Shown: piece after piece, positions 1 to 19,893 of the stretch
How the letters are laid out: each line of letters opens with the position of its first letter
Position numbering within the stretch: position 1 is the first letter of the stretch
Assembly: GCA_017481115.1 (NCBI GenBank)
Contig: JAFUPP010000039.1
Location: 1-64,000 of the forward strand
Reading direction: 5' to 3'
Length of the DNA: 64,000 nucleotides
From: Clostridia bacterium
GTDB lineage: Bacteria > Bacillota > Clostridia > Oscillospirales > Acutalibacteraceae
Translations under genes and position numbers: made by a program
Notes under the pieces: generated by a model
Told to the model about the DNA's origin: nothing
What the model saw: only the letters and a program-made list of their open reading frames with translations
The model's database searches: none

Positions 1-1259
1 AATGCCTTCGATAGCCGATACGTCTACCTTGCGGTCAAGACCCTGCTGTTTGCAGTATTCGACGGGATCTGCACCATCCTCGATAACGGCAATGAGTATC
101 TTCTTACCTGCGTTACGGTTGATGTCACCCTTTTCGACCATCTTGATAATGGCGGCAAGGTCCTTTGCGGTGATCTGCAGCTCGTTAAGGGTATCTCCCT
201 TCTTACGAAGCACGCCCGCACAGTCGGTGAGTATCCAGACCGATGTTTCCTTTGCGTTACAGCCGAGAGCAACGGTTTCATCAAGAAGTGATGAAAGCTT
301 GTGGTTTGAAAGAAGCATCTCTATCTCGACGTCGGGAATGCCTGCAGCGGCATACTCCTCTGCCTTTTCGTCCACCGCAACCGGCTTTTGTTGCTTGATT
401 TTTTCAAGCCATTCGTCATCAATGATGATGGGCATAAGGTTTGCATCGGGGAAGTAGCGGTAATCCGCCTCGGTCTCCTTATTACGCATAGCAAAGGTCT
501 TGCCCGAAACATCATCAAAACGTCTTGTTTCCTGAACAAGCTCTTCGGTCTCAAACTCAAGAGCATCCATGTGACGCTGTGACTCGTAACGGATGGCACG
601 TTCTATGGCTTCAAAGGAGCTCATATTCTTGATTTCGGTTCTTACGCCGAACTCCTCGCTTCCTTCGGGACGAACCGAGATGTTTACGTCGCAACGCATT
701 GCACCCTCTTCGCACTCGGAGATACCGCCCGATCGGAACATTGATTTAAGCTTGTTAAGGTAGGTAACTACCTCTTCAGCACTTCTAAAATCGGGCTGAG
801 TAACTATCTCGATAAGAGGAACACTTGTACGGTTGAAGTCAACAAAGGATGATCTTCCGCCGTGAACCAGCTTTCCTGCATCCTCCTCCATATGAATCTG
901 CTTAATGCGGATATCACGGTTGCCCTGCGAGGTCTTGAGGGTAACGCATCCATCGGTGCAGATGGGGTGGTTAAGCTGGGTTATCTGATATGCACAGGGC
1001 AGATCGGGATAATAGTAATTCTTTTTATCAAATGTAGTGTAGCGATTGATGTTACAGTTGAGCATAAGACCCGCTGTAACCGCAAGCTCTACGACCCTTT
1101 TGTTCATTACGGGAAGCATTCCGGGCATACCGGAACAGGCGGGACAAACGCAGTCGTTAGGCTCGTTTGCGGCAGAATGACCACCGCAAGAGCAAAATAT
1201 TTTTGATTTTGTATCAAGTTCTACGTGGGTCTCAAGACCGATGACAAGCTCGTATTTCA
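1..1259 (-). CDS. gatB: Asp-tRNA(Asn)/Glu-tRNA(Gln) amidotransferase subunit B, C-terminally truncated by the window edge
   Basis: A manual reverse-complement translation from 1259 downward gives MKYELVIGLETHVELDTKSKIFCSCGGHSAANEPNDCVCPACSGMPGMLPVMNKRVVE...QIHMEEDAGKLVHGG...YRYFPDANLMPIII with no stop through position 1. This is the canonical GatB N-terminus. It is absent from the ORF track because its stop lies outside the window. Confidence 0.9.
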
Positions 1260-1262
1260 TAA

Positions 1263-2447
1263 TCATTCACCCATCCTTTCAACACTTGATGCAATACTTA
1301 AAAGTGTGGATTCATCAAAGCTCTTGCCCAAAAGCTGAACCTTACCGCTTACAAGTGCAGGGGTTCCTATAAGGTTAGCAAGTGCTGTGAACACACCCTC
1401 TTCAAACACCTTGCCAAAGGCATCGGAAATATCGTAGGCTTCATACTCGGTCTTACTGCAGACGGGGGTAAGAAGTGCATCGTAGTTTTTCATTATTTCG
1501 GCAAAACGCTCACTGATGACCCTACGTACTCTGAGGGATTTATCATAGCAGTCTTTGTAGCGGTTTTTGGAAAGAACATCCGAGCCGTAAAGAATTACCG
1601 ACTTTGTAAGGAAGTTAAAGCCCTCTGTTCTTGAATTTACGTAAAGCTCGTCTATATTTCTGTATTCGGCGGCACGGTGACCGTACTTAACGCCGTCATA
1701 GCGGGATACGTTGTTGCAGGTCTCGGCAGTCATAAGTATCTGCCAGGCAACATTTGCGGTATCAAAGATGTCAAAGGATATCTCCTCCACCTTAACACCC
1801 TGCTTTTTAAGGCTTTCGGCATATTCTTTAACTATGCCCTGTGTTTTACCATCGGCCTTTTCAAGAAGCTCCTTTATAATTGCGACACGTTTGCCCGAAA
1901 CATCGGCATTTACGGTATAATCATAGCTCTCATTTTTAAGACTTGTACCGTCCTTTTCATCGTGACCTGCAATTATATCCATTATTTCCTTTACACCCTC
2001 AACATCTGATGCATATACACCAGGCTGTTCGCCGGATGCGGCACAGGAGATGACTCCGTAACGTGAAACGGTACCGTAGGTGGGCTTTAAGAAGTCTACA
2101 CCCGAAAGTGCAGCGGCACGACGTGTAGCACCGTTCATATCAACGCCGAGTGCTGCCTTTACGCTGCCCTCTTTGACAAGCTCTGCAGCGGCACCGACCA
2201 ATTTTTCACTTTTTTCGCCTGTGTAGGAAAACTCACCTACTAAATCAAGACCAAATTCACCGACGTTTGTTTTGCCCGATACGGTATAGCCCTTGTTTTC
2301 AAGGCGAACCACCGCTTCGGCACTAAAAAGAGGTTTAAAGCCCTCGAGTATTCTGGATCCTGCATAGGCGGGAACACCCTTTACAAGAAGGGTATCGTCT
2401 ACTGCAATATTTCCTTTAGTATTTATCTCGGTTGCGTAGTATTTCAT
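1263..2447 (-). CDS. Amidase-signature (GatA-like) protein of about 395 aa. Two of the three catalytic-triad residues appear to be replaced.
   Basis: The protein aligns to GatA (LKPTYGxVSRYG, IAGHD). The GGSSGG cis-Ser motif is replaced by TGEKSEK and the nucleophile motif GSDTGGSIR by GVDMNGATR. It is short (395 aa versus about 485 aa). The ATG at 2447 is preceded by AGTGAGGTG. The GTG at 2456 is an alternative start. Confidence 0.75.
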   Translation of the reverse strand: MKYYATEINTKGNIAVDDTLLVKGVPAYAGSRILEGFKPLFSAEAVVRLENKGYTVSGKTNVGEFGLDLVGEFSYTGEKSEKLVGAAAELVKEGSVKAALGVDMNGATRRAAALSGVDFLKPTYGTVSRYGVISCAASGEQPGVYASDVEGVKEIMDIIAGHDEKDGTSLKNESYDYTVNADVSGKRVAIIKELLEKADGKTQGIVKEYAESLKKQGVKVEEISFDIFDTANVAWQILMTAETCNNVSRYDGVKYGHRAAEYRNIDELYVNSRTEGFNFLTKSVILYGSDVLSKNRYKDCYDKSLRVRRVISERFAEIMKNYDALLTPVCSKTEYEAYDISDAFGKVFEEGVFTALANLIGTPALVSGKVQLLGKSFDESTLLSIASSVERMGE

Positions 2448-2457
2448 TTTCTGCACC

Positions 2458-4533
2458 TCACTTTACAAGTCTGGGTACCTGCCAGCTGTCCTCGCTTCTC
2501 TCGGGAGCACCCGAAAGAAGTTCTTCTCTTGTGAAGGGCTGTTTACGCTCATCCTCACGAAGAACATTGGTCATAGGCATTACGTGTACCATTTCTTCAA
2601 CATTTTCGGTGTCTATTGTGTTTAAAATCTCCTCGTTTTTGCTCATCATCTTAAAGATATCCTGCATTACGTTTTCTTCCTCATCGGTAAGGGATATCTG
2701 ATTGAGCTGCTGGGCATTTGAGAAGGTGGAACGCTTTTGTCCTGCACCTCGGCCGCCCGAACCCGCTGTCATACGTGATGCAAGTGCGTTGCCGTTTCCG
2801 AGAAGGTGTACGTCCTCAAGCTGCTGATTGGTGACCTCACTAGGTGCACCGAGCAACAGATCCTGTGCATTACCGTTAAGCGGGAATGCAATAACGTCAA
2901 GTATCTTTTCTTCATCGGTAAGAAGCATTACCATACGGTCAACACCGGGAGCCATACCTGCGTGGGGAGGTGCGCCGTACTGGAACGCGTTGTAAAGCGC
3001 GTTGAATCTTGCTTTAAGCTCATCCTCGCTGTATCCTGCGATATCAAAAGCCTTTTTCATTATGTCTACATCGTGGTTACGAACCGCGCCCGATGCAAGC
3101 TCTATACCGTTACATACAAGGTCGTACTGATATGCAAGTATCTCGGTAGGCTCCTTGTTTAAAAGAGCATCCATTCCGCCCTGCGGCATAGAGAAGGGGT
3201 TGTGTGTGAATATGGTGTCGCCCGTTTCCTCATCGTTTTCGTACATGGGGAAGTCTACAACAAAGCAGAATTCGAATGCATCGTCTTTAATAAGGTCAAG
3301 CTGTTCCTTTTTAGCAAGCCAGGTACGGATGTGTCCTGCCTTCTTTTCGGTGTCATTTTTCTTGTCGTCACAGATAAAGAAGAGTGTTTCGCCCTCCTTA
3401 ACACCTGTGATATCTATAATTTCCTTCTTCTTTGCATCGCTTAAGAACTTTGCGATAGGTCCTGCAAACACGCCCTCTTTAAGGGTGATGTAACCAAGTC
3501 CGCCAAGACCTACCTCGGCACTTGTAGCAAACTTTAAGGAATCCTCAAAGAATTTGTTTGACTTACCTTTGCAGTCGGCAACGATACCGCGAACGGGTCT
3601 GCCCTTAAATGCAGGGAAATCAACATCCGAGAAAAACTCGGTAAGGTCGCATATCAAAAGGGGGTTACGAAGGTCGGGTTTATCCGAGCCGTAGAGCATC
3701 ATCGACTCTGCATAAGGGATACGTCTGAAGGGCTTTTCGGTAATTCTTTTATCCGAGAAGGTCTTGAAGGTGTCGTAAATGACATCCTCGCATATATCAA
3801 GTACCTCTTCTTGTGTTGCAAATGCCATTTCAAAGTCGAGCTGGTAAAATTCACCGGGTGAACGGTCGGCTCTGGCATCCTCATCTCTGAAGCAGGGTGC
3901 TATCTGGAAGTATTTATCAAAGCCCGATACCATAAGCAGCTGCTTGAACTGCTGGGGAGCCTGCGGAAGTGCATAAAACTTGCCCGGATGCTTACGGCTG
4001 GGTACAAGGAAGTCTCTTGCGCCCTCGGGCGAGGATGCGGTAAGAATAGGTGTCTGCATCTCAAGAAAATCCTTCTGCTCCATTTTTTGACGCAAATGAC
4101 GGATGATCTTTGAACGCATTACGAGATTATTGTGGTTTTTGGGGTTACGAAGATCAAGAAAACGGTATTTAAGACGAAGCTCGTCCTTGCTCATTCTTGA
4201 TGCTCTGACCTCAAAGGGAAGCATATTCTTGCTCTTGCCCAAAACGGTAAGAGAATCGACAATAAGCTCAACATAACCGGTGTCGATCTTTTCGTTTACG
4301 GTGTCGGGATCCCTCTTTTCAACCCTACCGCTTACCGAAATGACCGTCTCGCGATTTACGTTTTTAAGAAGCTCCTCATTATGAATGACCACCTGGGTCA
4401 CACCCGTGTAGTCACGAAGATCAAGAAATATAACGCCGCCGTGATCTCGAATAACATCCACCCAGCCGGCAAGCTCAACCGTCTGACCGATATGCTCATC
4501 ACGGATATCGTTACAATGCAGCGTTCTGTACAT
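2458..4533 (-). CDS. aspS: Aspartyl-tRNA synthetase fused in frame to a C-terminal GatC domain (691 aa)
   Basis: The N-terminal roughly 590 aa are bacterial AspRS (MYRTLHCNDIRDEHIGQTVELAGWVDVIRDHGGVIFLDLRD...FRDEDARADR...PPHAGMAPGVDR...LGAPSEVTNQQLEDVHL). The frame then continues without a stop through a Gly/Ser-rich linker into a GatC-like segment. That segment reads LTDEEENVMQDIFKMMSKNEEILNTIDTENVEEMVHVMPMTNVLREDE...SWQVPRLVK and is followed by TGA at 2458-2460. The ATG at 4533 has GGAGG 8 nt upstream. Confidence 0.85.
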   Translation of the reverse strand: MYRTLHCNDIRDEHIGQTVELAGWVDVIRDHGGVIFLDLRDYTGVTQVVIHNEELLKNVNRETVISVSGRVEKRDPDTVNEKIDTGYVELIVDSLTVLGKSKNMLPFEVRASRMSKDELRLKYRFLDLRNPKNHNNLVMRSKIIRHLRQKMEQKDFLEMQTPILTASSPEGARDFLVPSRKHPGKFYALPQAPQQFKQLLMVSGFDKYFQIAPCFRDEDARADRSPGEFYQLDFEMAFATQEEVLDICEDVIYDTFKTFSDKRITEKPFRRIPYAESMMLYGSDKPDLRNPLLICDLTEFFSDVDFPAFKGRPVRGIVADCKGKSNKFFEDSLKFATSAEVGLGGLGYITLKEGVFAGPIAKFLSDAKKKEIIDITGVKEGETLFFICDDKKNDTEKKAGHIRTWLAKKEQLDLIKDDAFEFCFVVDFPMYENDEETGDTIFTHNPFSMPQGGMDALLNKEPTEILAYQYDLVCNGIELASGAVRNHDVDIMKKAFDIAGYSEDELKARFNALYNAFQYGAPPHAGMAPGVDRMVMLLTDEEKILDVIAFPLNGNAQDLLLGAPSEVTNQQLEDVHLLGNGNALASRMTAGSGGRGAGQKRSTFSNAQQLNQISLTDEEENVMQDIFKMMSKNEEILNTIDTENVEEMVHVMPMTNVLREDERKQPFTREELLSGAPERSEDSWQVPRLVK

Positions 4534-4770
4534 AGTATTACCTCCCAAAATTGCAAAAATAAAAGCCCCGAGAATATTTTCATATTCTCGGGACGAGTAA
4601 ACAAAATTCACCCGCGGTGCCACCCGCATTGATGCAAAAAAGCATCCTCTTTTAATATAAGATTGTGTAAAAACGGAGCGTTCCCAAACCTACTACTCAT
4701 CCCAAACGCGCTTTCAGTCGCCGACGCGTTCTCCCTGACGGACTTTCCATAAAGGCCGAGTTTCCATTAG
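4534..4770 (-). promoter_or_regulatory. T-box riboswitch leader of the aspS-gatC-gatA'-gatB operon, including an intrinsic terminator at 4563-4597
   Basis: The minus-strand sequence AATGCGGGTGGCACCGCGGGTG (4605-4626) matches the T-box consensus GGGUGGNACCGCG. It is followed by the hairpin CCCGAGAATAT-gaaa-ATATTCTCGGG and the run GCTTTTATTTTT immediately upstream of the aspS RBS. A stem-I-like GGAG...GGGAACG-CTCC segment suggests an AAC (Asn) specifier, but that call is tentative. Confidence 0.8.
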
Positions 4771-4771
4771 T

Positions 4772-4799
4772 ATTATAGCAAAAATTACGGCTTTGTCAA
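4772..4799 (-). promoter_or_regulatory. Sigma-A type promoter for the T-box leader and aspS
   Basis: On the minus strand, TTGACA (4799-4794), a 16-nt spacer and TATAAT (4777-4772). Confidence 0.7.
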
Positions 4800-4855
4800 C
4801 AAATTTTTTTGCCGCTAAAACTATCTTATGAAGATTTTTCGTCTTTATTCCGGGT

Positions 4856-5101
4856 CTAATATTTTTTATCAAACGAGAGCTCAATACCGTATGCTCTCTC
4901 GGGTATCTCAAGTTCTGTCTGATTTTCCTCACAGTTTTTTCCGCAGGAGGATAATTCCGTATAGAAACGCAATCCGGCTTTGCGCTGAAAATGCTCACAT
5001 ACATTATCGAGTGCGGCAACGGTTTTGTTTTTCAGATCACACATTCCAAAGTTTACGTTCAGATAAGGATAATGCTCACAACACCAGCAGCGTACTTCCA
5101 T
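4856..5101 (-). CDS. Small cysteine-rich hypothetical protein (81 aa)
   Basis: The ATG at 5101 has AGGGGG 8 nt upstream. The sequence is MEVRCWCCEHYPYLNVNFGMCDLKNKTVAALDNVCEHFQRKAG..., with protein-like composition and several Cys pairs. I recognise no homolog. Confidence 0.35.
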   Translation of the reverse strand: MEVRCWCCEHYPYLNVNFGMCDLKNKTVAALDNVCEHFQRKAGLRFYTELSSCGKNCEENQTELEIPERAYGIELSFDKKY

Positions 5102-5412
5102 ATAATAACCCCCTAAATAAAAAAGCGTACCCCGAAGAGTACGCCGAAAAAGTGCTCCTCGGTAGATTACCACATCACACCGACTATCTGCATAAGCACA
5201 AAGTTCAAAGAACACCTTTTACCAGGTTATTCTTTGTGCTTATTTTCACGATAGTCGCAAGTTATTAAAATATGTGATGTGGTATGGCTTTATTTTATCA
5301 TAACATCTGTAATTTTACAATACAAAATTTATAAGCATTCTCTGTGTCCCGTATTTATATAGTATTACGGACGGTCAGGGATACCTGTCTCTACAAATTG
5401 CCCGTTTGCGAC

Positions 5413-5585
5413 TGTCAATGAGGTGCACTTCATATTTTTATTTTTTTGTCAATGATGTGTACCTCAGGTTTTCAAAAAATAACAACTTTCTGTCAATGAG
5501 GTACACCTCATATTCTGTAATAATTTTGTCAATGTAGTGTACCTCATATTTTTTAAAAAATCTGTCAATGAGGTGTGCTTCATAT
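5413..5585. repeat. Five tandem copies of a 23-bp motif TGTCAATGAGGTGYACYTCATAT, each containing a 16-bp imperfect palindrome, spaced 34-44 bp apart
   Basis: The copies lie at 5413-5435, 5447-5469, 5491-5513, 5527-5549 and 5563-5585. Copy 3 contains the perfect palindrome ATGAGGTACACCTCAT. The motif produces the spurious repetitive ORFs 5438..5623 and 5464..5661. Confidence 0.85.
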
Positions 5586-5680
5586 TTAAAATTTGATAGC
5601 AGAATGTGAAAGCGGGCGAACACAGTTCGCCCCTACTTGCTACCAACAACCACGAAGCCAAGGACTTTCCCGTCTACACG

Positions 5681-5729
5681 GCAATATATCAAAAAAACAC
5701 CGAGCGGATCACTCCGTTCGGTGCTTTGT
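5681..5729. terminator. Bidirectional intrinsic terminator downstream of rny
   Basis: A run of seven A, then the hairpin CACCGAGCGG-atcact-CCGTTCGGTG, then CTTTGTTTTTTATTTT. Confidence 0.7.
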
Positions 5730-5732
5730 TTT

Positions 5733-7280
5733 TTATTTTGCAAAGTCAATGGCACGGGATTCACGGATAAGGTTTACCTTGACCTGACCGGGATATTCCA
5801 GCTCATCTTCTATCTTTTTGACTATGTCGCGGGCGACGATAACCATCTGGTCATCCGAAATAACCTCGGGCTTGACCATAATACGGATCTCTCTACCTGC
5901 CTGAATAGCAAAGGATGAATCGATTCCGTTGAAGGAATTGGCAATTTCCTCCAGCTTTTCAAGACGCTTGATATAGTTTTCGATATTCTCACGTCTTGCA
6001 CCGGGACGTGCTGCCGAAACAGCATCCGCCGCCTGAACGATAAATGCGACAACGCTCTTTGCCTCAACATCGCCGTGGTGAGCGTGGATGGCGTGAACCA
6101 CCGCTTCGCTTTCCTTATACTTCTTGGCAACATCAACACCAAGCTGTATATGGCTTCCCTCCATCTCGTGATCGAGTGCCTTACCGATATCATGTAAAAG
6201 ACCTGCACGTCTTGCAAGGTTGATATCTGCACCGATCTCACCTGCGATAAGACCGGAAATATAGGAAACCTCCATTGAATGATTAAGAACGTTCTGGCCG
6301 TAGCTTGTACGGTAATGAAGCTTACCGAGAAGCTTAACAAGCTCGGGATGGAGACCTCTGACCGATGCATCGAGCATAGCCTTTTCGCCCTCGCTCTTGA
6401 TGACCGACTCGACATCTCTCTTTGCCTTTTCGTACATTTCCTCGATCTTTGCGGGATGAATTCGTCCGTCGGCAATTAACTTCTCAAGGGTTACACGGGC
6501 GATCTCTCTGCGAACGGGATCAAAGGATGATACGGTAATGGCTTCGGGTGTATCGTCGATAATAAGGTCAACACCCGTAATGGTTTCAAGGGTACGGATG
6601 TTTCTGCCCTCTCTACCGATTATTCTACCCTTCATTTCGTCATTAGGAAGGGCAACTGTTGAAATGGTACATTCTGAAGAATGGTCTGCGGCACAACGCT
6701 GTATTGCCTGAGAAAGAACCTCTCTTGCCTTCTCGTCGCACTCGTCACGAAGCTTTGCCTCAAAATCCATGATTTTGCCGGCCTTTTCGTGTGAAAGCTC
6801 TTCATCAAGAGCACGAAGAAGCTGCTCCTTAGCCTGCTCCTTGGTAAGACCCGAGATTTTTTCGAGCATATCAAGCTGACTTTTCTTGATAGTTTCTGCC
6901 TCTTGGAGCATTTCCTCTGCTTCCTTCTGGCGTTTGGCTATCTTTTCTTCCTTAATTTCAATGTTCTCTGTCTTTCTGTCGATAGACTCTTCTTTTTGCT
7001 GGATTCTTCTTTCCTGACGCTGAATTTCGCTGCGTCTTTCTCTAAGATCCTTTTCTGTTTCATTTCTCATCTGGAAGACTTCATCCTTGGCTTCCATAAT
7101 GATCTCTTTCTTTCTTGCTTCTGCTTCTTTGATGGCTTCATTCAGACGCTGAGTAGCCTGTTTCTCGGCAGAACCGAGTATTCCTTCAGCCTTGCGTTTA
7201 CGGAAAATTACGCCGAGCGCAAACCCGACTATGCCGAATACGACAGCTCCGATGGCGCCACCAATCAAATACTGTGTCAT
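5733..7280 (-). CDS. rny: Ribonuclease Y
   Basis: An N-terminal transmembrane helix, then a coiled-coil region, a KH domain and an HD domain ([21 protein letters not shown]). The ATG at 7280 is preceded by AAAGGAGGTG. Confidence 0.95.
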
Positions 7281-7655: not shown

Positions 7656-8078
7656 ATGTTCAAAAAAGGTTTAGGAATTTTATTAGCATTTCTGCTTGTT
7701 TTTTGCGGATGCTCATCCCAAAACACCGTATCTTATGTTAATTCCGATGCGGTTTCGGGAGATGAAGTGGTGGCTTTGTCAATAGACACGTCAACCCTTA
7801 CCTCTGACGGAGTGAAGATCGAGATCAAAAATCTTACCGATAAGGAAATGACCTACGAAACAAGCTTTGTTCTGGAGCAGCAGACGGACGACGGATGGAT
7901 ATGGATAAATACGGAGCAGGAATTTACCGCACTTGGATGTATTCTTGCACCGAACGACACAAACACACAGTCCCTTAAGTTTATAAAAACTCTTGATGAC
8001 GGTAATTACCGCATAACCAAGAATTTCTACGCAGACGGCACAAAATACGAGTGCTTTGTAGAATTTGAGTTAATATAG
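7656..8078 (+). CDS. Small secreted/lipoprotein of unknown function
   Basis: Signal peptide with a Cys-containing end (LLVFCGCSS). Strong RBS AAGGAAAGGGG. An extended -10 TGATATAAT lies upstream. Confidence 0.7.
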   Translation: MFKKGLGILLAFLLVFCGCSSQNTVSYVNSDAVSGDEVVALSIDTSTLTSDGVKIEIKNLTDKEMTYETSFVLEQQTDDGWIWINTEQEFTALGCILAPNDTNTQSLKFIKTLDDGNYRITKNFYADGTKYECFVEFELI

Positions 8079-8110: not shown

Positions 8111-9358
8111 ATGCGCAAAAGAAGAATAATATCCGCTGTTTCATTCATTTTATCCCTCACCCTGATGCTGACCTTTTGGGGTTGCGGTACCACCGTAAAG
8201 GCGGAGGATCTTATGGAGGGTATTACCGCCTCAAAGGTGGACGGAAAAAATAGTGACGAAAAATTTTTAGATTCACAGTTAAACTTCGCAATACAGCTTC
8301 TTCGTCAAAACGGCGGTGCGACCGACAACACCGTTATGTCCCCTGCATCTATCGCACAGGCTCTTGCAATGGTGGCAAACGGCACCGACGGCGAGACCCT
8401 AAAGCAGATAGAAACGGTGCTTGGCAAGGGTATTTCGATCGACGACCTTAACCGATACTACTATTCATTTTTGCAAAATTTAAGATCTGACAATACGCTT
8501 ACCTCGGTAAACTCTGTTTGGTTTAATGAAACCATTGCTGTAAAAAGGGATTTTCTGCAAAAGAATGCCGATTATTACGGTGCAGATGCATATGCCACTC
8601 CCTTTGACGCAGATACAGCAGAGGACATCAACAACTGGGTAAGCAACAAGACCAACGGACTTATACCCGAAATAGTTGACAGTGTTGATTCGTCAATGGT
8701 AAGTATTATTCTCAACGCGATGTACTTTAATGCCGAATGGGAAGAAAAATATGAGGATACCGACCTTAAGGATTACCAATTCACTTCGGTTACGGGTGAA
8801 AAGCAGAGGGCTACCTATATGATAAGCTACGAGAATTATATCAGCGACAACAAAACATTCGAAGGTATAATGAAGCATTACAAGGGCAAAAAATACGCCT
8901 TTGTAGCGGTAAAAAGTATGGACAAGAGAATAGGTGCAGAACCCGACTACACAAAATTTATAACCGAGGATCTTAATTCCGAGGCTTTAATGAAGGCAAT
9001 GAAGAATATCAACGAAGGCGCCAGAACCTATATTCCAAAATTTAAAATTGAATATGCAGATTCTCAAATAGAAGCTTTGAAAAAAATGGGAATAACAGAC
9101 GTATTCGACCCTGAAAAAGCAAATTTATCTGGCATTTCAAACAACTCTTCCTATATTTCATCTGCTGTACACAAGGCTGTTATTGATGTAAACGAGCACG
9201 GTACCGAGGCGGCAGCGGCAACGCAGATGACCGATGTCATTTCCTCGTCAAGCGGCAAAACCAAAACCGTCGCCTTTGACTGTCCGTTTATCTATATGAT
9301 AATAGATGCCGAGACCTTACTTCCCGTATTTATCGGAAGTGTAACAAGCATGAACTAA
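8111..9358 (+). CDS. Secreted serpin-family protease inhibitor
   Basis: Signal peptide followed by serpin motifs: NTVMSPASIAQALAMV, the FNAEW shutter region, the hinge GTEAAAAT and then a reactive-centre loop, and a C-terminal FDCPFIYMIID. Confidence 0.85.
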   Translation: MRKRRIISAVSFILSLTLMLTFWGCGTTVKAEDLMEGITASKVDGKNSDEKFLDSQLNFAIQLLRQNGGATDNTVMSPASIAQALAMVANGTDGETLKQIETVLGKGISIDDLNRYYYSFLQNLRSDNTLTSVNSVWFNETIAVKRDFLQKNADYYGADAYATPFDADTAEDINNWVSNKTNGLIPEIVDSVDSSMVSIILNAMYFNAEWEEKYEDTDLKDYQFTSVTGEKQRATYMISYENYISDNKTFEGIMKHYKGKKYAFVAVKSMDKRIGAEPDYTKFITEDLNSEALMKAMKNINEGARTYIPKFKIEYADSQIEALKKMGITDVFDPEKANLSGISNNSSYISSAVHKAVIDVNEHGTEAAAATQMTDVISSSSGKTKTVAFDCPFIYMIIDAETLLPVFIGSVTSMN

Positions 9359-13449: not shown

Positions 13450-14427
13450 TTAGAACATCAAAGAAACAACCTCTTGCTTTGTGATGCCCGAAAAATAGTC
13501 GTCTGTATTAATGTTATCAAAAACCTTTTGTATCTCCTTTGGATTAAACGGCAGATCTTTAAGTAAAGCTTCTATCTCGCCTGTGTCCTTCTTTGAAAAA
13601 TAGTCACCAAAGAATTTGATATCCGAAATCCTGCCATCGCGAAGGGAGAGACGGCACTCTAAAATTCCGCCGTCAAATTTTTTGCGGTTTATGATAGAAA
13701 AGTCTTGTTTAAAGCCAAAATTATACTCCCACCTATCGTACTTTTCACGCTGTATCTCCCTGATTTTTTGCATATCGCTTTGAGAAAGCGTATACATTTC
13801 GGCGTTTTTGTGGGTGTTAAGCACACTTTCACAAAGACCTTTTATAAAATCTTCGGGAGAAACAGGATTTTTCAGGTGGTCGTTTATATTTGTAACCCTG
13901 CTTTTAACACTTTTTATACCCTTTGACTGCACCTTTAAAGGATCGGGATTGAGTACACCCGTCATTTGTGATACATCGGCTCCAAGCATTACGGTGCCGT
14001 GATGCAAAACGCGGTCTTTATATATGCACTCGGCATTTCCCGAAAACTTTTTACCCATTATCAGCAGATCGTTCCTGCCCGAAAGTGTGGCGGTGATGCC
14101 AAGGGATTTAAGGTATTTAATTATGGTATCGGAGAAAAAGGAGTAGTCGGAAAAACGCTCCTCACCCCGCAATATGTAGGTAAAGTTTACATTACCAAGG
14201 TCATGAAAGACGGCTCCGCCGCCCGTCATTCTGCGAACAACCGAAATACCCTTCTCTTCAGCAAATTCACGGTCTATTTCGGCATATGCGTTTTGATTTT
14301 TACCAATTATTACGCTTTTTTCATTGCGCCAGAGCATAAAAAACTCATCATCGGTATGCTTTAAAAGATATTCTTCTGTTGCAAGGTTCACCCTTACATC
14401 GGTAGTTTCTAAAATTAAAACCTTCAT
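13450..14427 (-). CDS. lplA: Lipoate-protein ligase A
   Basis: EEYLLKH...VIIGKNQNAYAEID...GISVVRRMTGGGAVFHDLGNVNFTYI. It is 20 nt upstream of mtlD on the same strand. Confidence 0.85.
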   Translation of the reverse strand: MKVLILETTDVRVNLATEEYLLKHTDDEFFMLWRNEKSVIIGKNQNAYAEIDREFAEEKGISVVRRMTGGGAVFHDLGNVNFTYILRGEERFSDYSFFSDTIIKYLKSLGITATLSGRNDLLIMGKKFSGNAECIYKDRVLHHGTVMLGADVSQMTGVLNPDPLKVQSKGIKSVKSRVTNINDHLKNPVSPEDFIKGLCESVLNTHKNAEMYTLSQSDMQKIREIQREKYDRWEYNFGFKQDFSIINRKKFDGGILECRLSLRDGRISDIKFFGDYFSKKDTGEIEALLKDLPFNPKEIQKVFDNINTDDYFSGITKQEVVSLMF

Positions 14428-14695: not shown

Positions 14696-17161
14696 TTAGA
14701 CGCCCATCTTGCTCTTTCTGAGGAGCTCGGTTGATGAGAAGTCAACACCTGCATTGTAGCCGGGAATGGGCATGATCTTTGCATGGATAGCATCGAGGAT
14801 CCACTCGGGCTGCGGGAAGAACTCGTTATCATACTCGAACGGAGGTGTGATCCAGTTCTTTGCACCGACAACAACGGGAGGTGCATCGAGGTAATCGAAT
14901 GCGAGCTGAGTGATGTTCTGTGCCATATCGTTGAGGATGTTACCTCTGGTTACAGCATCGGAAGCAAGAATGATCTTACCGGTCTTCTTAACGCTCTCGA
15001 TAACCTTGTCATAGTTGAAGGGAACGACTGAACGTGCGTCGATAACCTCTGCGGAGATACCCTTTTCCTCAAGAAGCTTTGCAGCATCCATTGCACGATA
15101 AAGGGTTGCACCGATGGTAAGGATGGTAACGTCTGTACCCTCTTTTCTTACTGCGGGCTCGCCGAAGGGGATCTCGTAGTAATCTGTGGGAACGCCTTCC
15201 TTAACGAACTGCTCACCCATATCGTAGATTCTCTGGCTCTCGAAGAAGATTACGGGGTCGGTTCCTGCGAGGGCTGTGTTCATAAGACCCTTAGCATCGT
15301 AAGGAGTTACGGGGAATACGACCTTAAGTCCGGGAACGTGAGCACAAAGTGCACACCAGTCCTGGCTATGCTGTGCGCCGTACTTAGCACCAACGGATAC
15401 ACGGAGAACTACGGGCATCTTGAGTCCGCCGCAGCTCATTGCCTGCCATTTTGCCATCTGGTTGAATACTTCGTCACCGCAGCATACGATGAAGTCACAG
15501 TACATAAGCTCTGCGATTACGCGGCCGCCTGCCATACCGTAGCCAACTGCTGAACCGACGATAGCTGACTCTGAAATGGGAGCGTTGAAGAGTCTGTGAT
15601 AAGGAAGTGCTTCGGTAAGTCCACGATAAACTGCGAATGCACCGTTCCAGTCACGAACGTCTTCACCGTAGGAGATGAGGGTGGGATCCTCATAGTACTT
15701 GTCAATAATTGCCTCGAAGATTGCATCACGGATGTTGTAGAGCTTGAGCTTGGGAACTGCCTTGCCCTTATCGTCAAATGCATATCTTGCCTTTGTTGCG
15801 TTCTTCTTAACAACCTCGTTGTCTTCCTTCTTCATACGAACAACAGGCTCACGGTCATCCATCTTTGCAACGTGCTGATTTGAGAACATAACGTTTTCGA
15901 TGTGTGCGGGGTTCTTCTCGTAATCTGTGTAGGGAGAAACCTCGTGATCTGAAGCGATCATAAACATTCTGTGGTTACGGTCGATGACCTTTTCCTTAAC
16001 AGCCTCGATCTCCTTCTTGGTTGCAACCTTTGCGTCGATGATCTGCTGGGGGAATACGGTGAGAGGATCAAGCTGTGCCCACTCTTCAACCTCTTCCTTG
16101 GTTCTGTAGGAGGAAACGTCTGAGGTGGAGTGACCGCTGAGACGGTAGGTGATAACGTCGAGAAGGACGGGTCCCTTACCTTCCTTAATGGTCTTGATCT
16201 TTCTCTTATAGCAATCAATTACTGCGAGGGGGTTCCAGCCGTTGATTCTCTCAACGTTGAACTGGTTGGGAGCAATTGCACCAAGTCTTGCAAGGTCGTC
16301 ATAGCACATGGTCTCGCCCTTTGTCTGACCGCCCATGCCGTAGTGGTTGTTGTTGAAGTTGAAGATGATGGGAAGGCCGCCCTTATAGCCATCCTCCCAA
16401 AGCTCTCTGAACTGGTCCATATTAGCAAAGTTCATTGCTTCGTAAACAGGACCTCTTGCTGCAGCACCGTCACCTGCGTTTGCAACTACGATACCGCCCT
16501 TCTGGTTGCACTTCTTATAAAGAGCAACACCTGTTGCGATGGGGCCTGAACCACCAACGATTGCGTTGTTGGGGAATATACCGAAGGGAAGGAAGAAAGC
16601 GTGCATACTTCCGCCAAGTCCGCGGTTAAAGCCTGCGTCCTTTGCAAAAAGCTCACACATAAGACCGTACATAAAGAAGTCACGTGCAAGATCCTTTACG
16701 TTGTCTGCGGTTGAGTACTTCTTAACGATCTCATAGTTCTTACCGCCGTTGAACTCTTCCATGATCTTGGTAAGCTCTTCGTCGGAAAGCTTCTTAATGG
16801 CTGAAAGTGCCTTTGCAATAACCTCGTGATGTGAACGGTGGGTACCGAAGATGAAGTCATTTGCATCAAGGTTATAGGCCTGACCTACTGCGGTTGCTTC
16901 CTCACCGATTGCAAGGTGTGAGGGGCCGGGATAGGTGAATTCCTTGTTGTTGTAGTTACCCTGAAGCTTGATTGACTGAAGCATTGTTTCAAACTCGCGG
17001 ATTGCTACCATATCTGCATACATACCGAGAAAATCTTCCTTTGAGAAGTTATCCTTTTCATCGGCAACTGTTTTGTTGTATGAGCAGACCTCAATGTCCT
17101 TAAACTTAATTTTTCTTTTTTCGAACTTGGGGCCGGGCTCAATGTACATTGACTTAGGCAT
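14696..17161 (-). CDS. 2-oxoacid dehydrogenase E1 component with alpha and beta subunits fused (821 aa)
   Basis: The N-terminal half is a TPP-binding E1-alpha (GGSMHAFF...ANAGDGAAARGPVYEAMNFA). The C-terminal half is E1-beta (ISYGEDVRDWNGAFAVYRGL...MYCDFIVCCGDEVFNQMAKW). RBS AAGGAGAG. Confidence 0.85.
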   Translation of the reverse strand: MPKSMYIEPGPKFEKRKIKFKDIEVCSYNKTVADEKDNFSKEDFLGMYADMVAIREFETMLQSIKLQGNYNNKEFTYPGPSHLAIGEEATAVGQAYNLDANDFIFGTHRSHHEVIAKALSAIKKLSDEELTKIMEEFNGGKNYEIVKKYSTADNVKDLARDFFMYGLMCELFAKDAGFNRGLGGSMHAFFLPFGIFPNNAIVGGSGPIATGVALYKKCNQKGGIVVANAGDGAAARGPVYEAMNFANMDQFRELWEDGYKGGLPIIFNFNNNHYGMGGQTKGETMCYDDLARLGAIAPNQFNVERINGWNPLAVIDCYKRKIKTIKEGKGPVLLDVITYRLSGHSTSDVSSYRTKEEVEEWAQLDPLTVFPQQIIDAKVATKKEIEAVKEKVIDRNHRMFMIASDHEVSPYTDYEKNPAHIENVMFSNQHVAKMDDREPVVRMKKEDNEVVKKNATKARYAFDDKGKAVPKLKLYNIRDAIFEAIIDKYYEDPTLISYGEDVRDWNGAFAVYRGLTEALPYHRLFNAPISESAIVGSAVGYGMAGGRVIAELMYCDFIVCCGDEVFNQMAKWQAMSCGGLKMPVVLRVSVGAKYGAQHSQDWCALCAHVPGLKVVFPVTPYDAKGLMNTALAGTDPVIFFESQRIYDMGEQFVKEGVPTDYYEIPFGEPAVRKEGTDVTILTIGATLYRAMDAAKLLEEKGISAEVIDARSVVPFNYDKVIESVKKTGKIILASDAVTRGNILNDMAQNITQLAFDYLDAPPVVVGAKNWITPPFEYDNEFFPQPEWILDAIHAKIMPIPGYNAGVDFSSTELLRKSKMGV

Positions 17162-17185: not shown

Positions 17186-18556
17186 TTATTTAATATCGTA
17201 CAGTGCTTCACGAATTACTTCGCAGACTGTGGGATGCGGGAATACGATCTCCTTGATGTTCTGGATCTGCATTTCGGTCTCGACCATAAGGGCTGCACCG
17301 TAGATTATCTCTGAAGCGTAGCTTCCGATAAGATGAACACCAAGTAAACGGTTGTACTTTTTATCAACAATGAGCTTGCAGATACCGTCTCCGCCCTCGT
17401 TTTCGGCAAGATATCTGCCTGAGAACATCATAGAGACCTTTGCTACCTCTACATCGTAGCCTGCAGCCTTTGCCTGTGCTTCGGTAAGACCGACAGCGGC
17501 AACCTCGGGGTTGGTGTAGATGACCGAAGGAATTGCGTTATAACGCATAATGTCCTTCTTACCGAGCATTGTGTTTACTGCAACCTCACCCTCGCGGTAT
17601 GCGGTGTGGGCGAGCATAACCTTGCCGTTTATATCACCTGCGGCAAAGAGTCCGGGAACGTTGGTACGCATCTGATCGTCGGTAACAACTGCTCCGCGCT
17701 CCATATATACGTTAAGGTTTTCAAGGCCGTAGCCTGTGGTGACTGCACGTCTGCCGATTGCACAAAGAACCTTGTCTGCTGCAACCTCGTTTGCCTTGCC
17801 GTTTTCTTCAAAGCAAACCTTACCGTCGCCAACCTTGGTTACCTTGCAACCGAGCTTAAACTCGATTCCTGCCTTTGCATAGTTCTTTTCAAGGATCTTT
17901 GCAATTTCGATATCTGTGGGTCCGCCGATATGATCAAGCATCTCAACAACGGTGACCTTTGAGCCTACCATTGAGTAGTAGGATGCCATTTCCATACCGA
18001 TTACGCCGCCGCCGATAACAACAAGCTTTTCGGGGATAGCTTCAAGATCAAGGATCTCGCGGTTGGTAAGAACAAATCCGCTCTCTACACCCTCACGAAG
18101 ACCGGGGATGGGGGGAACGACTGCCTCACTACCTGCGCAAAGAAGCATATACTTTGCAACGTACTTTTCGCCGTTTGCCTCAACCTCAAAGCCCTCCTCG
18201 GTCTTACCGAGAATGGTACCGAAGGCATTAACGACCTTTACGCCGTGCTTCTTCATTGCCATACCGATTCCGCCGACAAGGGTGGAAACGACCTTATTCT
18301 TTCTGGCAACTACCTTTTTCTGATCAATCTTTACGTTTTCTGCGGTTACACCGTAAACGTCAGAATGAAGTGCATGTTCGTAGAGCTTACCCGAATGGAT
18401 AAGAGTCTTTGAGGGGATACAGCCTTCGTTAAGGCAGACACCGCCAAGTGCTCTCTTTTCGATAACTACGGTCTTAAGACCGCCTTCGGATGCTCTTTCG
18501 GCAGCGTTATAGCCTGCAGGGCCGCCACCGAGTACGATAAGATCAAATTTTTCCAT
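17186..18556 (-). CDS. lpd: Dihydrolipoyl dehydrogenase (E3)
   Basis: GGGPAGY FAD-binding motif, the redox disulfide GGVCLNEGCIPSK, and an NAD-binding fold. RBS AGAGGTG. Confidence 0.9.
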   Translation of the reverse strand: MEKFDLIVLGGGPAGYNAAERASEGGLKTVVIEKRALGGVCLNEGCIPSKTLIHSGKLYEHALHSDVYGVTAENVKIDQKKVVARKNKVVSTLVGGIGMAMKKHGVKVVNAFGTILGKTEEGFEVEANGEKYVAKYMLLCAGSEAVVPPIPGLREGVESGFVLTNREILDLEAIPEKLVVIGGGVIGMEMASYYSMVGSKVTVVEMLDHIGGPTDIEIAKILEKNYAKAGIEFKLGCKVTKVGDGKVCFEENGKANEVAADKVLCAIGRRAVTTGYGLENLNVYMERGAVVTDDQMRTNVPGLFAAGDINGKVMLAHTAYREGEVAVNTMLGKKDIMRYNAIPSVIYTNPEVAAVGLTEAQAKAAGYDVEVAKVSMMFSGRYLAENEGGDGICKLIVDKKYNRLLGVHLIGSYASEIIYGAALMVETEMQIQNIKEIVFPHPTVCEVIREALYDIK

Positions 18557-18567
18557 ATCTACACCTC

Positions 18568-19893
18568 TTATTTAGCAAGAAGAACCGAGAAGTTCTCGAG
18601 TGCCTTCTTCATCTCAACAAGGAACTTGGAGGCGGGAGTGCCGTCTACAACCCTGTGATCGTAGGTGAGTGAAAGTCCCATTGCGGGATATGTCTTGATC
18701 TCGCCGTTTACCTCCTTGACTCTGGTCATAATGGTGTCTACACCAAGGATGCCTGTCTGGGGAGGATTGATAACCGGAGTAAAGGACTCAATACCCATTG
18801 AGCCGAGGTTGGAAACGGTGAAGGTTGCACCCTGAAGATCGTCGGGTGAAATGCTTCCGTCCTGAGCTGCCTTTGCAAGACGCTTAACCTCTGCTGAAAT
18901 CTCGTTAAGGCTCTTCTTATCAGCGTTCTTTACGGTGATAACGAGGAGTCCTCTGGGAGTATCTACTGCAACACCGAGGTTTACGGCGTTAAAGTAACGG
19001 ATGGTCTCACCGTTATCTATGCAGTGAGCGTTAAGGCCCTTGAGTGCCTCGTTTTTAAGTACTCTTGATACTGCGAAAAGGATGATATCGTTGAGTGTGA
19101 TGTTAGCAAGACCCATATCCTCACCTGCTGCCTTGACCTTCTTACGGAATGCCATGACCTCGGTAGCATCGAAGCTTGAGTTGTGGGTAAGCTGGGGAAT
19201 GGTGGAAAGCGAAAGTGCCATATTCTTGGCTATAGCCTTTCTGACGCCCTTCATCTTCTCATCAACATACTCTGCTGCGGGCTCTGCTGCTACTGCTGCG
19301 GGAGCGGCTGCACCGATATCGCCAACTGCAAACTTACCGCCGATACCTGTTCCTGCTGCACCTGTGAAGTCACCTGCTGCTGCGTATGTTGCGGTGGGTC
19401 CGTTTGCGATGAGAGTACGGATGTCTCTTTCAATAATTCTTCCCTCTGCGCCGGTGGGAACTGCAAAGCGGTAGTCAACGCCGCTCTTTCTTGCAAACTC
19501 CTTTGCTCTGGGGGAGATCTTAACAAAGCCTTCTGCTGCCTCTGTCTTGATTACGACGGGTGCTGCAGCGACCTCTGCCTTTACTTCTTCCTTAACCTCG
19601 GCAGGAGCTTCCTCCTCTGCCTCGCCTGCGGGTGCAAACTCGGCTACCGATTCACCTTCGTTTCCGATAACGCAAACGTTGGTCATACAGGGGATGTCGT
19701 CCCCTTCTTCTGCAAACAGTTCAAGTACGATTCCGTCAACGGGAGCTTCCTCGTCGGCGGTGGACTTATCGGTTTCGTATGAGAACAAAACTTCGCCAGC
19801 CTTGACTGCATCGCCCTTTTTCTTGTGCCATTCGGTAAGAATACAGCTTTCGACCGAAATACCGACCTTAGGCATCATTACGGGTGTTGCCAT
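18568..19893 (-). CDS. Dihydrolipoamide acyltransferase (E2)
   Basis: Lipoyl domain (SYETDKSTADEEAPVDG), an Ala/Pro-rich linker, and a catalytic domain ending ...LSLTYDHRVVDG. RBS AAAGGAGG. Confidence 0.9.
   Translation of the reverse strand: MATPVMMPKVGISVESCILTEWHKKKGDAVKAGEVLFSYETDKSTADEEAPVDGIVLELFAEEGDDIPCMTNVCVIGNEGESVAEFAPAGEAEEEAPAEVKEEVKAEVAAAPVVIKTEAAEGFVKISPRAKEFARKSGVDYRFAVPTGAEGRIIERDIRTLIANGPTATYAAAGDFTGAAGTGIGGKFAVGDIGAAAPAAVAAEPAAEYVDEKMKGVRKAIAKNMALSLSTIPQLTHNSSFDATEVMAFRKKVKAAGEDMGLANITLNDIILFAVSRVLKNEALKGLNAHCIDNGETIRYFNAVNLGVAVDTPRGLLVITVKNADKKSLNEISAEVKRLAKAAQDGSISPDDLQGATFTVSNLGSMGIESFTPVINPPQTGILGVDTIMTRVKEVNGEIKTYPAMGLSLTYDHRVVDGTPASKFLVEMKKALENFSVLLAK

Follow-up and report, generated by a model that had tools for sequence, protein, structure and literature searches.

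Can the aminoacyl-tRNA synthetase of a transamidosome be joined covalently to its amidotransferase in nature, and what enzyme would result? Transamidosomes are a textbook case of substrate channelling, in which mischarged tRNA is kept from the ribosome. To our knowledge, every characterised transamidosome is non-covalent, and the asparagine version needs tRNA to assemble. Its components, AspRS and the amidotransferase GatCAB, are normally held together through tRNA(Asn) (PMC9499178). The question is raised by a 64,000-nucleotide (nt) stretch from a Clostridia bacterium of the Acutalibacteraceae (assembly GCA_017481115.1, contig JAFUPP010000039.1, positions 1-64,000 of the forward strand), referred to here as the window. 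An initial annotation of this DNA described an in-frame fusion of a non-discriminating-type AspRS with GatC, encoded together with GatA and GatB under a single T-box. We analyzed the locus with family profiles and compared it with related loci from a one-genome-per-species scan that returned ~600 related stretches, the best 80 of which were kept for locus counts. These relatives are species-level metagenome-assembled genomes (MAGs) of Acutalibacteraceae and Oscillospiraceae from ruminant and other guts.

The fusion gene, aspS~gatC, occupies positions 2458-4533 on the minus strand, as do all operon features described below. Its open reading frame (ORF) encodes 691 residues followed by a stop, running from an ATG at 4533 to a stop codon at 2460-2458, with a GGGAGG Shine-Dalgarno sequence 7 nt 5' of the ATG. 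A longer, 723-residue ORF beginning at an ATG at 4629 was rejected as unlikely because that start would fall within the antiterminator of the T-box leader. Residues 1-577 (2803-4533) constitute a bacterial-type AspRS with an OB-fold anticodon-binding domain, a class II catalytic core and a GAD insertion; this module scores 741 bits against NF001750 over residues 1-577 (cut-off 443) and 607.5 bits against TIGR00459 (cut-off 373.85). The Pfam matches are tRNA_anti-codon at residues 19-98 (57.9 bits, cut-off 27), tRNA-synt_2 at 117-553 (369 bits), GAD at 322-393 (38.8 bits) and, near the C-terminus, GatC (PF02686) at 615-685 (45.8 bits, E 7e-12, cut-off 23). The GatC domain comprises residues 603-691 (2461-2727) and terminates in ...WQVPRLVK. 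Residues 603-690 match positions 5-92 of the 93 in TIGR00135 with 58.4 bits (cut-off 47.1), nearly the full profile, from which we conclude that a whole GatC domain is present, with its usual C-terminus. The last 80 residues scored alone give 58.6 bits on the same model, which bears out the original identification of this segment. The domain aligns with the Aquifex and S. aureus GatC chains of known structure and is 50-60% identical to free-standing GatCs of 93 residues.

The two parts are joined by a linker of ~25 residues (residues 578-602; 2728-2802) that includes ...LLGNGNALASRMTAGSGGRGAGQKRS..., is rich in Gly, Ser and Arg, as originally described, and matches no Pfam or NCBIfam model. 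The linker is the least conserved and fastest-evolving segment of the protein. Column conservation reaches its minimum, 0.43, at residues 581-600, and both the length and the sequence of the linker differ from clade to clade. Nonsynonymous divergence (dN) is likewise highest here, at 0.37 measured over residues 578-611, and still lies below synonymous divergence (dS), compared with a dN of 0.086 against a dS of ~1.9 for the AspRS module; dS is close to saturation, so that ratios of the two are approximate only. Purifying selection acts on every part of the operon proteins and is most relaxed in the linker.

The AspRS-GatC fusion is genuine and conserved. Neither a stop codon nor a frameshift, either of which would have exposed an artefact, occurs at the junction of the two modules, and 443 nt spanning this junction (2458-2900) are byte-identical in three independent ENA assemblies (L086, L087 and L088). 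A fourth data set, an NCBI MAG, encodes a GatA homologue (P0390) that is 100% identical to the window copy. An uninterrupted fused ORF of 689-702 residues, with 63-88% identity, is present in 72 of the 80 species-representative loci; of the other eight, five run into contig ends, two are genuinely unfused and the remaining one (L028) is broken by an internal stop. The open frame is kept in these 72 species-level genomes although the junction varies in both sequence and length. The stop in L028 (5650-7725) lies in frame at codon 456 of the fusion gene, within the AspRS core, and reflects either an assembly error or a pseudogene.

The gene that follows, gatA' (1263-2447), encodes a protein of 394 residues, compared with ~480 in a normal GatA, and its N-terminus is ~60 residues shorter. 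Homology to the amidase fold is clear from Pfam Amidase (PF01425; 183.7 bits, cut-off 27), and the six best PDB matches are all GatA chains (152-188 bits). On TIGR00132 the protein scores 256.2 bits, below the cut-off of 481.1, in a match that begins at profile position 62. Alignment with Aquifex and T. maritima GatA accounts for the whole of the Ser-cisSer-Lys triad: IAVKDNI has become IAVDDTL, replacing the catalytic Lys with Asp; the GGSS of GGSSGGS has been deleted, and with it the cis-Ser; and DTGGSIRQ has become DMNGATRR, replacing the nucleophilic Ser with Ala. We take K79 and S154 to be the other members of the S. aureus GatA triad. The nucleophile in GatA is Ser178 (PMC2330236). Across 74 GatA' sequences (73 orthologues and the window copy), the Lys position is always Asp or Glu and GGSS is always absent, with A, S, T or F at the nucleophile position. 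As judged from these replacements, GatA' is a GatA-derived pseudo-glutaminase that has lost its catalytic triad and cannot hydrolyze glutamine by the amidase-signature mechanism. The hard-wired channelling first proposed for this fusion cannot, then, run as it does in canonical GatCAB.

GatA' is nevertheless not a decaying pseudogene, a possibility ruled out by its constant length, its intact frame and a dN far below dS. Each of the 73 relatives in which the gene is complete has an intact ORF of a constant ~394 residues, and dN is 0.20 against a dS of ~2; the corresponding dN values of GatB and the AspRS module are 0.11 and 0.09. In NCBI MAG records (e.g. IJ462_02960), GatA' is called a 'hypothetical protein' and the fusion simply 'aspartate--tRNA ligase'. 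Automated annotation thus hides both, and metabolic reconstructions of these abundant ruminant-gut bacteria will miss or misread the Asn-tRNA route.

The third gene, gatB, runs off the start of the window, which contains its 5' part (1-1266; 420-422 codons, 1260-1266 nt). The full-length copy from the same organism (L086) reaches 566 bits with NF004012 (cut-off 338) and 497 with TIGR00133 (cut-off 315), and it aligns end to end with Aquifex GatB (residues 4-471, 419 bits). The motifs GLETHVEL, HMEEDAGK, RCDVNIS and DYRYFPD are all canonical, and both the cradle and the YqeY tail domain are present. By sequence, GatB is an intact, canonical subunit.

The gene order aspS~gatC, gatA', gatB given in the initial annotation agrees with the profile searches and recurs in each related locus that extends far enough to reveal it. 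The gatA' start lies 10 nt past the fusion stop, and the gatB ATG overlaps the gatA' stop codon (ATGA), so that translation of the three genes is probably coupled. From the leader terminator to the end of the window, a terminator scan predicted no site at a gene boundary; the minus-strand matches within coding regions are weak, with stems of 5-6 base pairs (bp). Upstream of the fusion gene, the best promoter in positions 1-5800 is a sigma-70-type site at 4772-4799, with TTGACA, a 16-nt spacer containing TG, and TATAAT (12 of 12 consensus matches); both hexamers are kept in an alignment of leaders from 76 loci. Within the AT-rich gap between rny and this promoter (5380-5500, minus strand), we noticed, on reading the sequence rather than with a repeat tool, a ~9-nt motif (TCATTGACA) that occurs with its flanks in some three direct copies at intervals of ~40-50 nt.

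The RNA between promoter and fusion gene is a T-box-type leader (4555-4765) with a divergent Stem I. The single T-box of the original description is present, with an Asn specifier, as a divergent variant only. At the Rfam gathering threshold, nothing in the window matches; under an E-value threshold, RF00230 (gathering score 93 bits) matches positions 4586-4808 with 42 bits (E 1.4e-7 locally), and this match is confined to the 3' half of the leader, Stem I being atypical. In L076, the most distant relative, the orthologous leader passes the gathering score with 100.4 bits, and compensatory changes in the leader helices can be read by eye between the window and L081. The hallmarks of a T-box are all recognizable, namely a purine after the specifier codon, a UGGN bulge in the antiterminator and a terminator whose formation excludes that of the antiterminator. 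The specifier codon is AAC (Asn; 4680-4682). In at least 60 of the 76 leaders, a GAGTAGT motif precedes AAC and a purine (A or G), and the specifier loop of the L076 leader reads GAAGAACA. AAC is the sole conserved triplet in this loop; the overlapping GAA and CGC frames vary, and Glu (GAA) or Arg (CGC) specifiers were rejected on this basis. The overlapping GAA and AAC of the window presumably resemble the NT-box of C. acetobutylicum. The antiterminator bulge, within the T-box sequence AAUGCGGGUGGCACCGCGGG (4611-4630), aligns to the Rfam consensus with high posterior probability; its UGGC is present in 69 of the 76 leaders and would pair with the GCCA 3' end of the tRNA. An intrinsic terminator with a 13-bp stem followed by UUUUAUUUUU (4555-4594; stem 4594-4565) shares sequence with the 3' half of the antiterminator, an arrangement known from T-box attenuators. 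Because AAC with its purine and the UGGC bulge are kept across the 76 leaders, we conclude that the leader senses tRNA(Asn).

The relatives also bear on the evolution of the fusion. Four of them (L081, L082, L070 and L076) have the same inactive GatA' together with separate aspS and gatC genes, which indicates that loss of the GatA triad is older than the fusion. The boundary differs in each case: a 200-nt spacer with a terminator-like hairpin in L081, a 14-nt spacer in L082, an 11-nt spacer with gatC in a different frame in L070, and an in-frame TAA in L076. In a neighbour-joining tree of the AspRS module, unfused L081 and L070 are sister to the fused clade of the window, and a second fused clade (the L057 group) falls outside both. 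The unfused AspRS proteins end in ...EANISIR(E/S)*; the L057 clade reads through at this point (...EANVSIRGKGG...), and the window clade has ...EDVHLLGNG.... The tree and the junction pattern together require two events: the genes were fused twice, or were fused once and split once. That the fusion has come or gone repeatedly at one gene boundary suggests a tether that is tolerated, at the least, and probably favoured.

A more distant fused lineage (L083 and L084) shares ~39% identity with the window protein and has an unrelated linker; the sources name its relatives as Aristaeellaceae, Eubacteriales and Deltaproteobacteria. As in the window, a T-box-like leader precedes aspS~gatC, gatA and gatB in the same order; the T-box sequence and a GGAACAG motif were read by eye in leaders that do not reach the Rfam gathering score. 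Unlike GatA', however, the GatA of this lineage has 488-491 residues, scores 615.6 bits on TIGR00132 (L083) and keeps the triad, with KDN, GGSSGGS and GGSIR all present in L083. The entry point to this lineage was a 363-residue protein (P0184), which we rejected as a different fusion: it is a chimeric gene call with an sdhA N-terminus, an AspRS C-terminus and GatC, and this succinate dehydrogenase flavoprotein/AspRS/GatC chimera is probably a misassembly. Its relatives of 274-282 residues on long contigs are frameshift-split full-length fusions rather than truncated proteins. A 336-residue protein (P0356, from an NCBI contig of 72,859 bp) carries both Pfam tRNA-synt_2 and Amidase and could represent either another AspRS-(GatC)-GatA fusion or a gene call split by a frameshift in the second lineage.

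The architecture is also catalogued. The curated family NF009460/PRK12820, bifunctional AspRS/GatC, has AspRS at the N-terminus and GatC at the C-terminus, as in the window protein, which matches profile positions 25-691 of 723 with 454 bits, below the equivalog cut-off of 1379. An exhaustive search of representatives with the linker and GatC region returned fragments and free 93-residue GatCs but no full-length fusion. One of the fragments, a divergent AspRS-GatC fusion (P0138; 42% identity over the GatC region), aligns to NF009460 up to position 719. We found no paper describing or testing a natural AspRS-GatC fusion in a literature search to which several key papers were out of reach. In view of the curated family and the second fused lineage, the initial statement that no described covalent fusion was known is overstated. 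The window protein represents a new lineage within a recurrent architecture that has been catalogued without having been studied.

The sequence class of the AspRS module does not show the non-discriminating (ND) type that had been assigned to it; the protein is a generic bacterial-type AspRS. In the anticodon domain, the His of RDHGG is present, as in the aligned mycobacterial Asp/Asn (ND) enzymes, where E. coli has Leu. P. aeruginosa AspRS presumably carries His at this position as well, and His31 and Gly83 of that enzyme are the residues that Bernard et al. reportedly associated with ND behaviour in 2006. At the second ND-associated position, the fusion has Asp, which is neither the Gly of ND enzymes nor the Lys of E. 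coli. The best PDB matches of the anticodon domain are mycobacterial Asp/Asn ligases. We infer ND activity, the aspartylation of both tRNA(Asn) and tRNA(Asp), from context, namely an operon with gatB and an Asn T-box.

On balance, we think it probable that this operon senses tRNA(Asn) and serves the tRNA-dependent synthesis of Asn-tRNA(Asn), encoding a hard-wired transamidosome that obtains its amide nitrogen from a source other than GatA. In such a system, uncharged tRNA(Asn) would pair with the AAC specifier and the UGGC bulge, stabilizing the antiterminator and allowing transcription through aspS~gatC, gatA' and gatB. The flexible tether of ~25 residues would link the C-terminus of AspRS to the N-terminus of a complete GatC, and each protomer of the AspRS dimer would nucleate one GatA'-GatB pair through GatC. 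The result would be an obligate 1:1 transamidosome that assembles independently of tRNA. The AspRS would charge tRNA(Asn) with Asp, and the intact GatB would phosphorylate and amidate the Asp, the Asp-tRNA(Asn) being handed over inside one particle rather than released to the ribosome. GatA' would serve as a scaffold and not as a glutaminase.

This arrangement is consistent with what is known of the subunits. GatC is required for GatA folding and for the complex with GatB (PMC2330236). In M. smegmatis, fusion of the GatC C-terminus to GatA raised mistranslation, which was modelled as freeing a GatB hairpin from its pairing (PMC7541841). Here the tether sits on the N-terminus of GatC, which leaves free the C-terminal hairpin that pairs with GatB. 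The T. thermophilus (3KFU) and P. aeruginosa (4WJ3) transamidosomes have the same components by homology, with GatA', GatB, GatC and AspRS each matching chains of these complexes. Complexes of this type are held by tRNA(Asn) and have an active GatA glutaminase, whereas the window encodes a covalent tether, and assembly would not need tRNA. A covalent link between GatC and a synthetase is compatible with assembly, as in the T. maritima glutamine transamidosome, for which chain C of PDB entry 3AL0 is an engineered GatC-linker-GluRS; that construct is artificial, has GluRS as the partner and places GatC at the N-terminus, whereas GatC is C-terminal in the window protein.

A similar arrangement is that of C. 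acetobutylicum, where Saad et al. reportedly described (in JBC in 2012 and PNAS in 2013) a T-box-controlled aspS2-gatCAB2 with a separate gatC and a canonical GatA. The two loci are alike in the tRNA(Asn) T-box and in having aspS followed by the gat genes, but in the window gatC is fused and GatA' is dead. The tethering of GatC, the Asn T-box and a GatA' that more than 70 species conserve in glutaminase-dead form would together make a new variant of the transamidosome. A natural covalent transamidosome that has arisen more than once would also offer a direct test of whether tethering matters for fidelity or efficiency.

Because GatA' lacks Ser-cisSer-Lys, nitrogen must enter by another route. 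GatB acts as both kinase and amidase on the tRNA-bound Asp, and in canonical enzymes ammonia from GatA reaches it through a 30 Å tunnel (PMC2330236, PMC9499178). The most likely source here would be free ammonium, which GatCAB reportedly accepts in vitro (as NH4Cl) and which is abundant in the gut habitats of these genomes. A bolder proposal, which we consider less likely than not, is that of a glutaminase-free amidotransferase in which the Asp, Asp and Asp-Asn replacements in GatA' might form a site through which ammonium enters the old tunnel at its mouth, or in which an asparaginase-superfamily donor, encoded near 22 of 67 loci as described below, would be the first GatD-like donor in bacteria. 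Should the complex prove active, enzymes of this family can transfer the amide without a glutaminase subunit. This bears on how ammonia delivery is coupled to tRNA amidation, and may reflect adaptation to an ammonium-rich gut.

Several points weigh against a hard-wired transamidosome supplied with nitrogen from outside GatA. A literature search returned no precedent for a glutaminase-less amidotransferase or for an inactive GatA. The residues that replace the triad are invariant among close GatA' homologues (VDD, DMNG and RR), and GatA' might on this evidence have a new ligand or activity instead of a mere scaffold role. An AlphaFold2 model of GatA' built with 26 close homologues had a predicted local distance difference test (pLDDT) score of 46.8 and was discarded. 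The four relatives with separate aspS and gatC do without a fusion, which is therefore not essential to the pathway. Finally, a canonical gatCAB, asnS, asnA/asnB or second aspS outside the 64 kb may alter the physiological reading.

An alternative source of nitrogen would be a separate hydrolase that docks on GatA'-GatB or works beside it; the candidate is a neighbouring protein of the asparaginase/GatD superfamily that would be a bacterial analogue of archaeal GatD. We consider this unlikely. In the organism of the window, an asparaginase-family gene (12665-13552 in L086) starts 52 nt past gatB, just outside the window. Of the 67 related loci that extend 1 kb or more beyond gatB, 22 have a homologue no more than 10 kb from the operon, in one of three arrangements. 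These proteins of ~335-385 residues are encoded downstream on the same strand (L001, L007-L009, L014, L016, L019, L020, L033, L037, L040 and L041), downstream on the opposite strand (L002, L046, L049 and L051), or upstream and divergently (L060-L062, L065 and L074). The same-strand gaps of 44-86 nt contain a hairpin with a weak U-tract and leave no room for a promoter, whereas loci without the gene have canonical terminators after gatB; this pattern suggests read-through into the same-strand gene from an operon induced by Asn starvation. A true Asn-degrading asparaginase would be paradoxical in that setting. On the other side, the gene is absent within ~7.5 kb in ~40 loci, including unfused relatives with a dead GatA'.

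The protein itself reaches 83 bits on Pfam Asparaginase (N-terminal domain), above the threshold of that model, and its best PDB match is GatD (2d6f_A, E 3e-11), with the GGTIC and HGTDTLA motifs, and hence the Thr and the Thr-Asp, invariant. However, it is equally close to ordinary type I asparaginases, scoring 89.6 bits on the type I model (cut-off 260) and 88.8 bits on the GatD model PRK04183 (cut-off 310), in both cases below the cut-off. The match to GatD begins at profile position 76 of 420, the N-terminal domain being absent, and the position of K254, the catalytic Lys of GatD, is occupied by an invariant Gln, so that the protein may not be a competent hydrolase. Archaeal GatDE offers the relevant comparison, as a tRNA-dependent amidotransferase whose ammonia donor subunit is of the asparaginase type and not an amidase-type GatA (PMC2330236), reported in archaea only (PMC8762117). 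The likeness is that a gene for an asparaginase-type partner adjoins the operon in some species. The kinase subunit is GatE there and GatB here, and the asparaginase-like protein has neither the N-terminal domain nor the aligned Lys.

It is comparably improbable that a canonical GatA or GatCAB encoded elsewhere supplies the glutaminase, or that an AsnRS does the real work and the operon is an accessory, low-activity or regulatory paralogue. C. acetobutylicum is said to have redundant gatCAB copies and an AsnRS beside aspS2-gatCAB2, and the view of the genome here extends over 64 kb. Within the window, tblastn with three proteins and Pfam searches of 30 further ORFs detected no asnS, asnA/asnB, second aspS or second gatCAB. 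A GatA swapped in from another locus would leave unexplained the conservation of GatA', intact in every complete copy and with dN far below dS, and the position of its gene between gatC and gatB, with translational coupling, points to GatA' itself as the partner in the complex.

Very unlikely, in our view, is a complex that has drifted away from Asn-tRNA(Asn) synthesis, either to sequester or proofread Asp-tRNA(Asn) or to provide activated aspartyl-tRNA for another product. The loss of the glutaminase is hard to square with an amidotransferase, the conserved replacements at the old active site hint at a new ligand, and AspRS fusions with new chemistry do occur, as in fungal ErdS (PMC9437257). 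Yet GatB retains its tail domain and every canonical motif, the leader senses tRNA(Asn), which is the logic of a pathway making charged tRNA(Asn), and the second fusion lineage has an ordinary GatA. Least probable by far is an assembly or sequencing artefact that removed a stop and a start between aspS and gatC: adjacent genes only 11-14 nt apart in relatives mean that one error could mimic a fusion, and some long-read assemblies have frameshifted copies (L083 and L084), but this explanation is effectively refuted by the same junction in three independent assemblies plus the NCBI MAG, by fusions across differing junctions in 72 genomes and by a linker dN below dS.

Some neighbouring genes are also of note. 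Downstream of gatB in the unfused relative L081 (9002-10024) is a gene for a 340-residue protein with a long poly-His tract, a C-terminal hydrophobic segment and no family match. Within the window, a 415-residue serpin with a lipoprotein-like signal sequence is encoded at 8111-9358 on the plus strand and adjoins a small lipoprotein with a Big_14 domain (7656-8078), a pair that is kept in the other assemblies of the organism. Finally, a 2-oxoacid dehydrogenase cluster occupies 14696-17161 (minus strand), 17186-19893 and 13450-14427; its E1 is a single polypeptide of 821 residues with E1_dh, Transket_pyr and Transketolase_C domains (fused alpha-beta), followed by E3, E2 and a lipoate-protein ligase.

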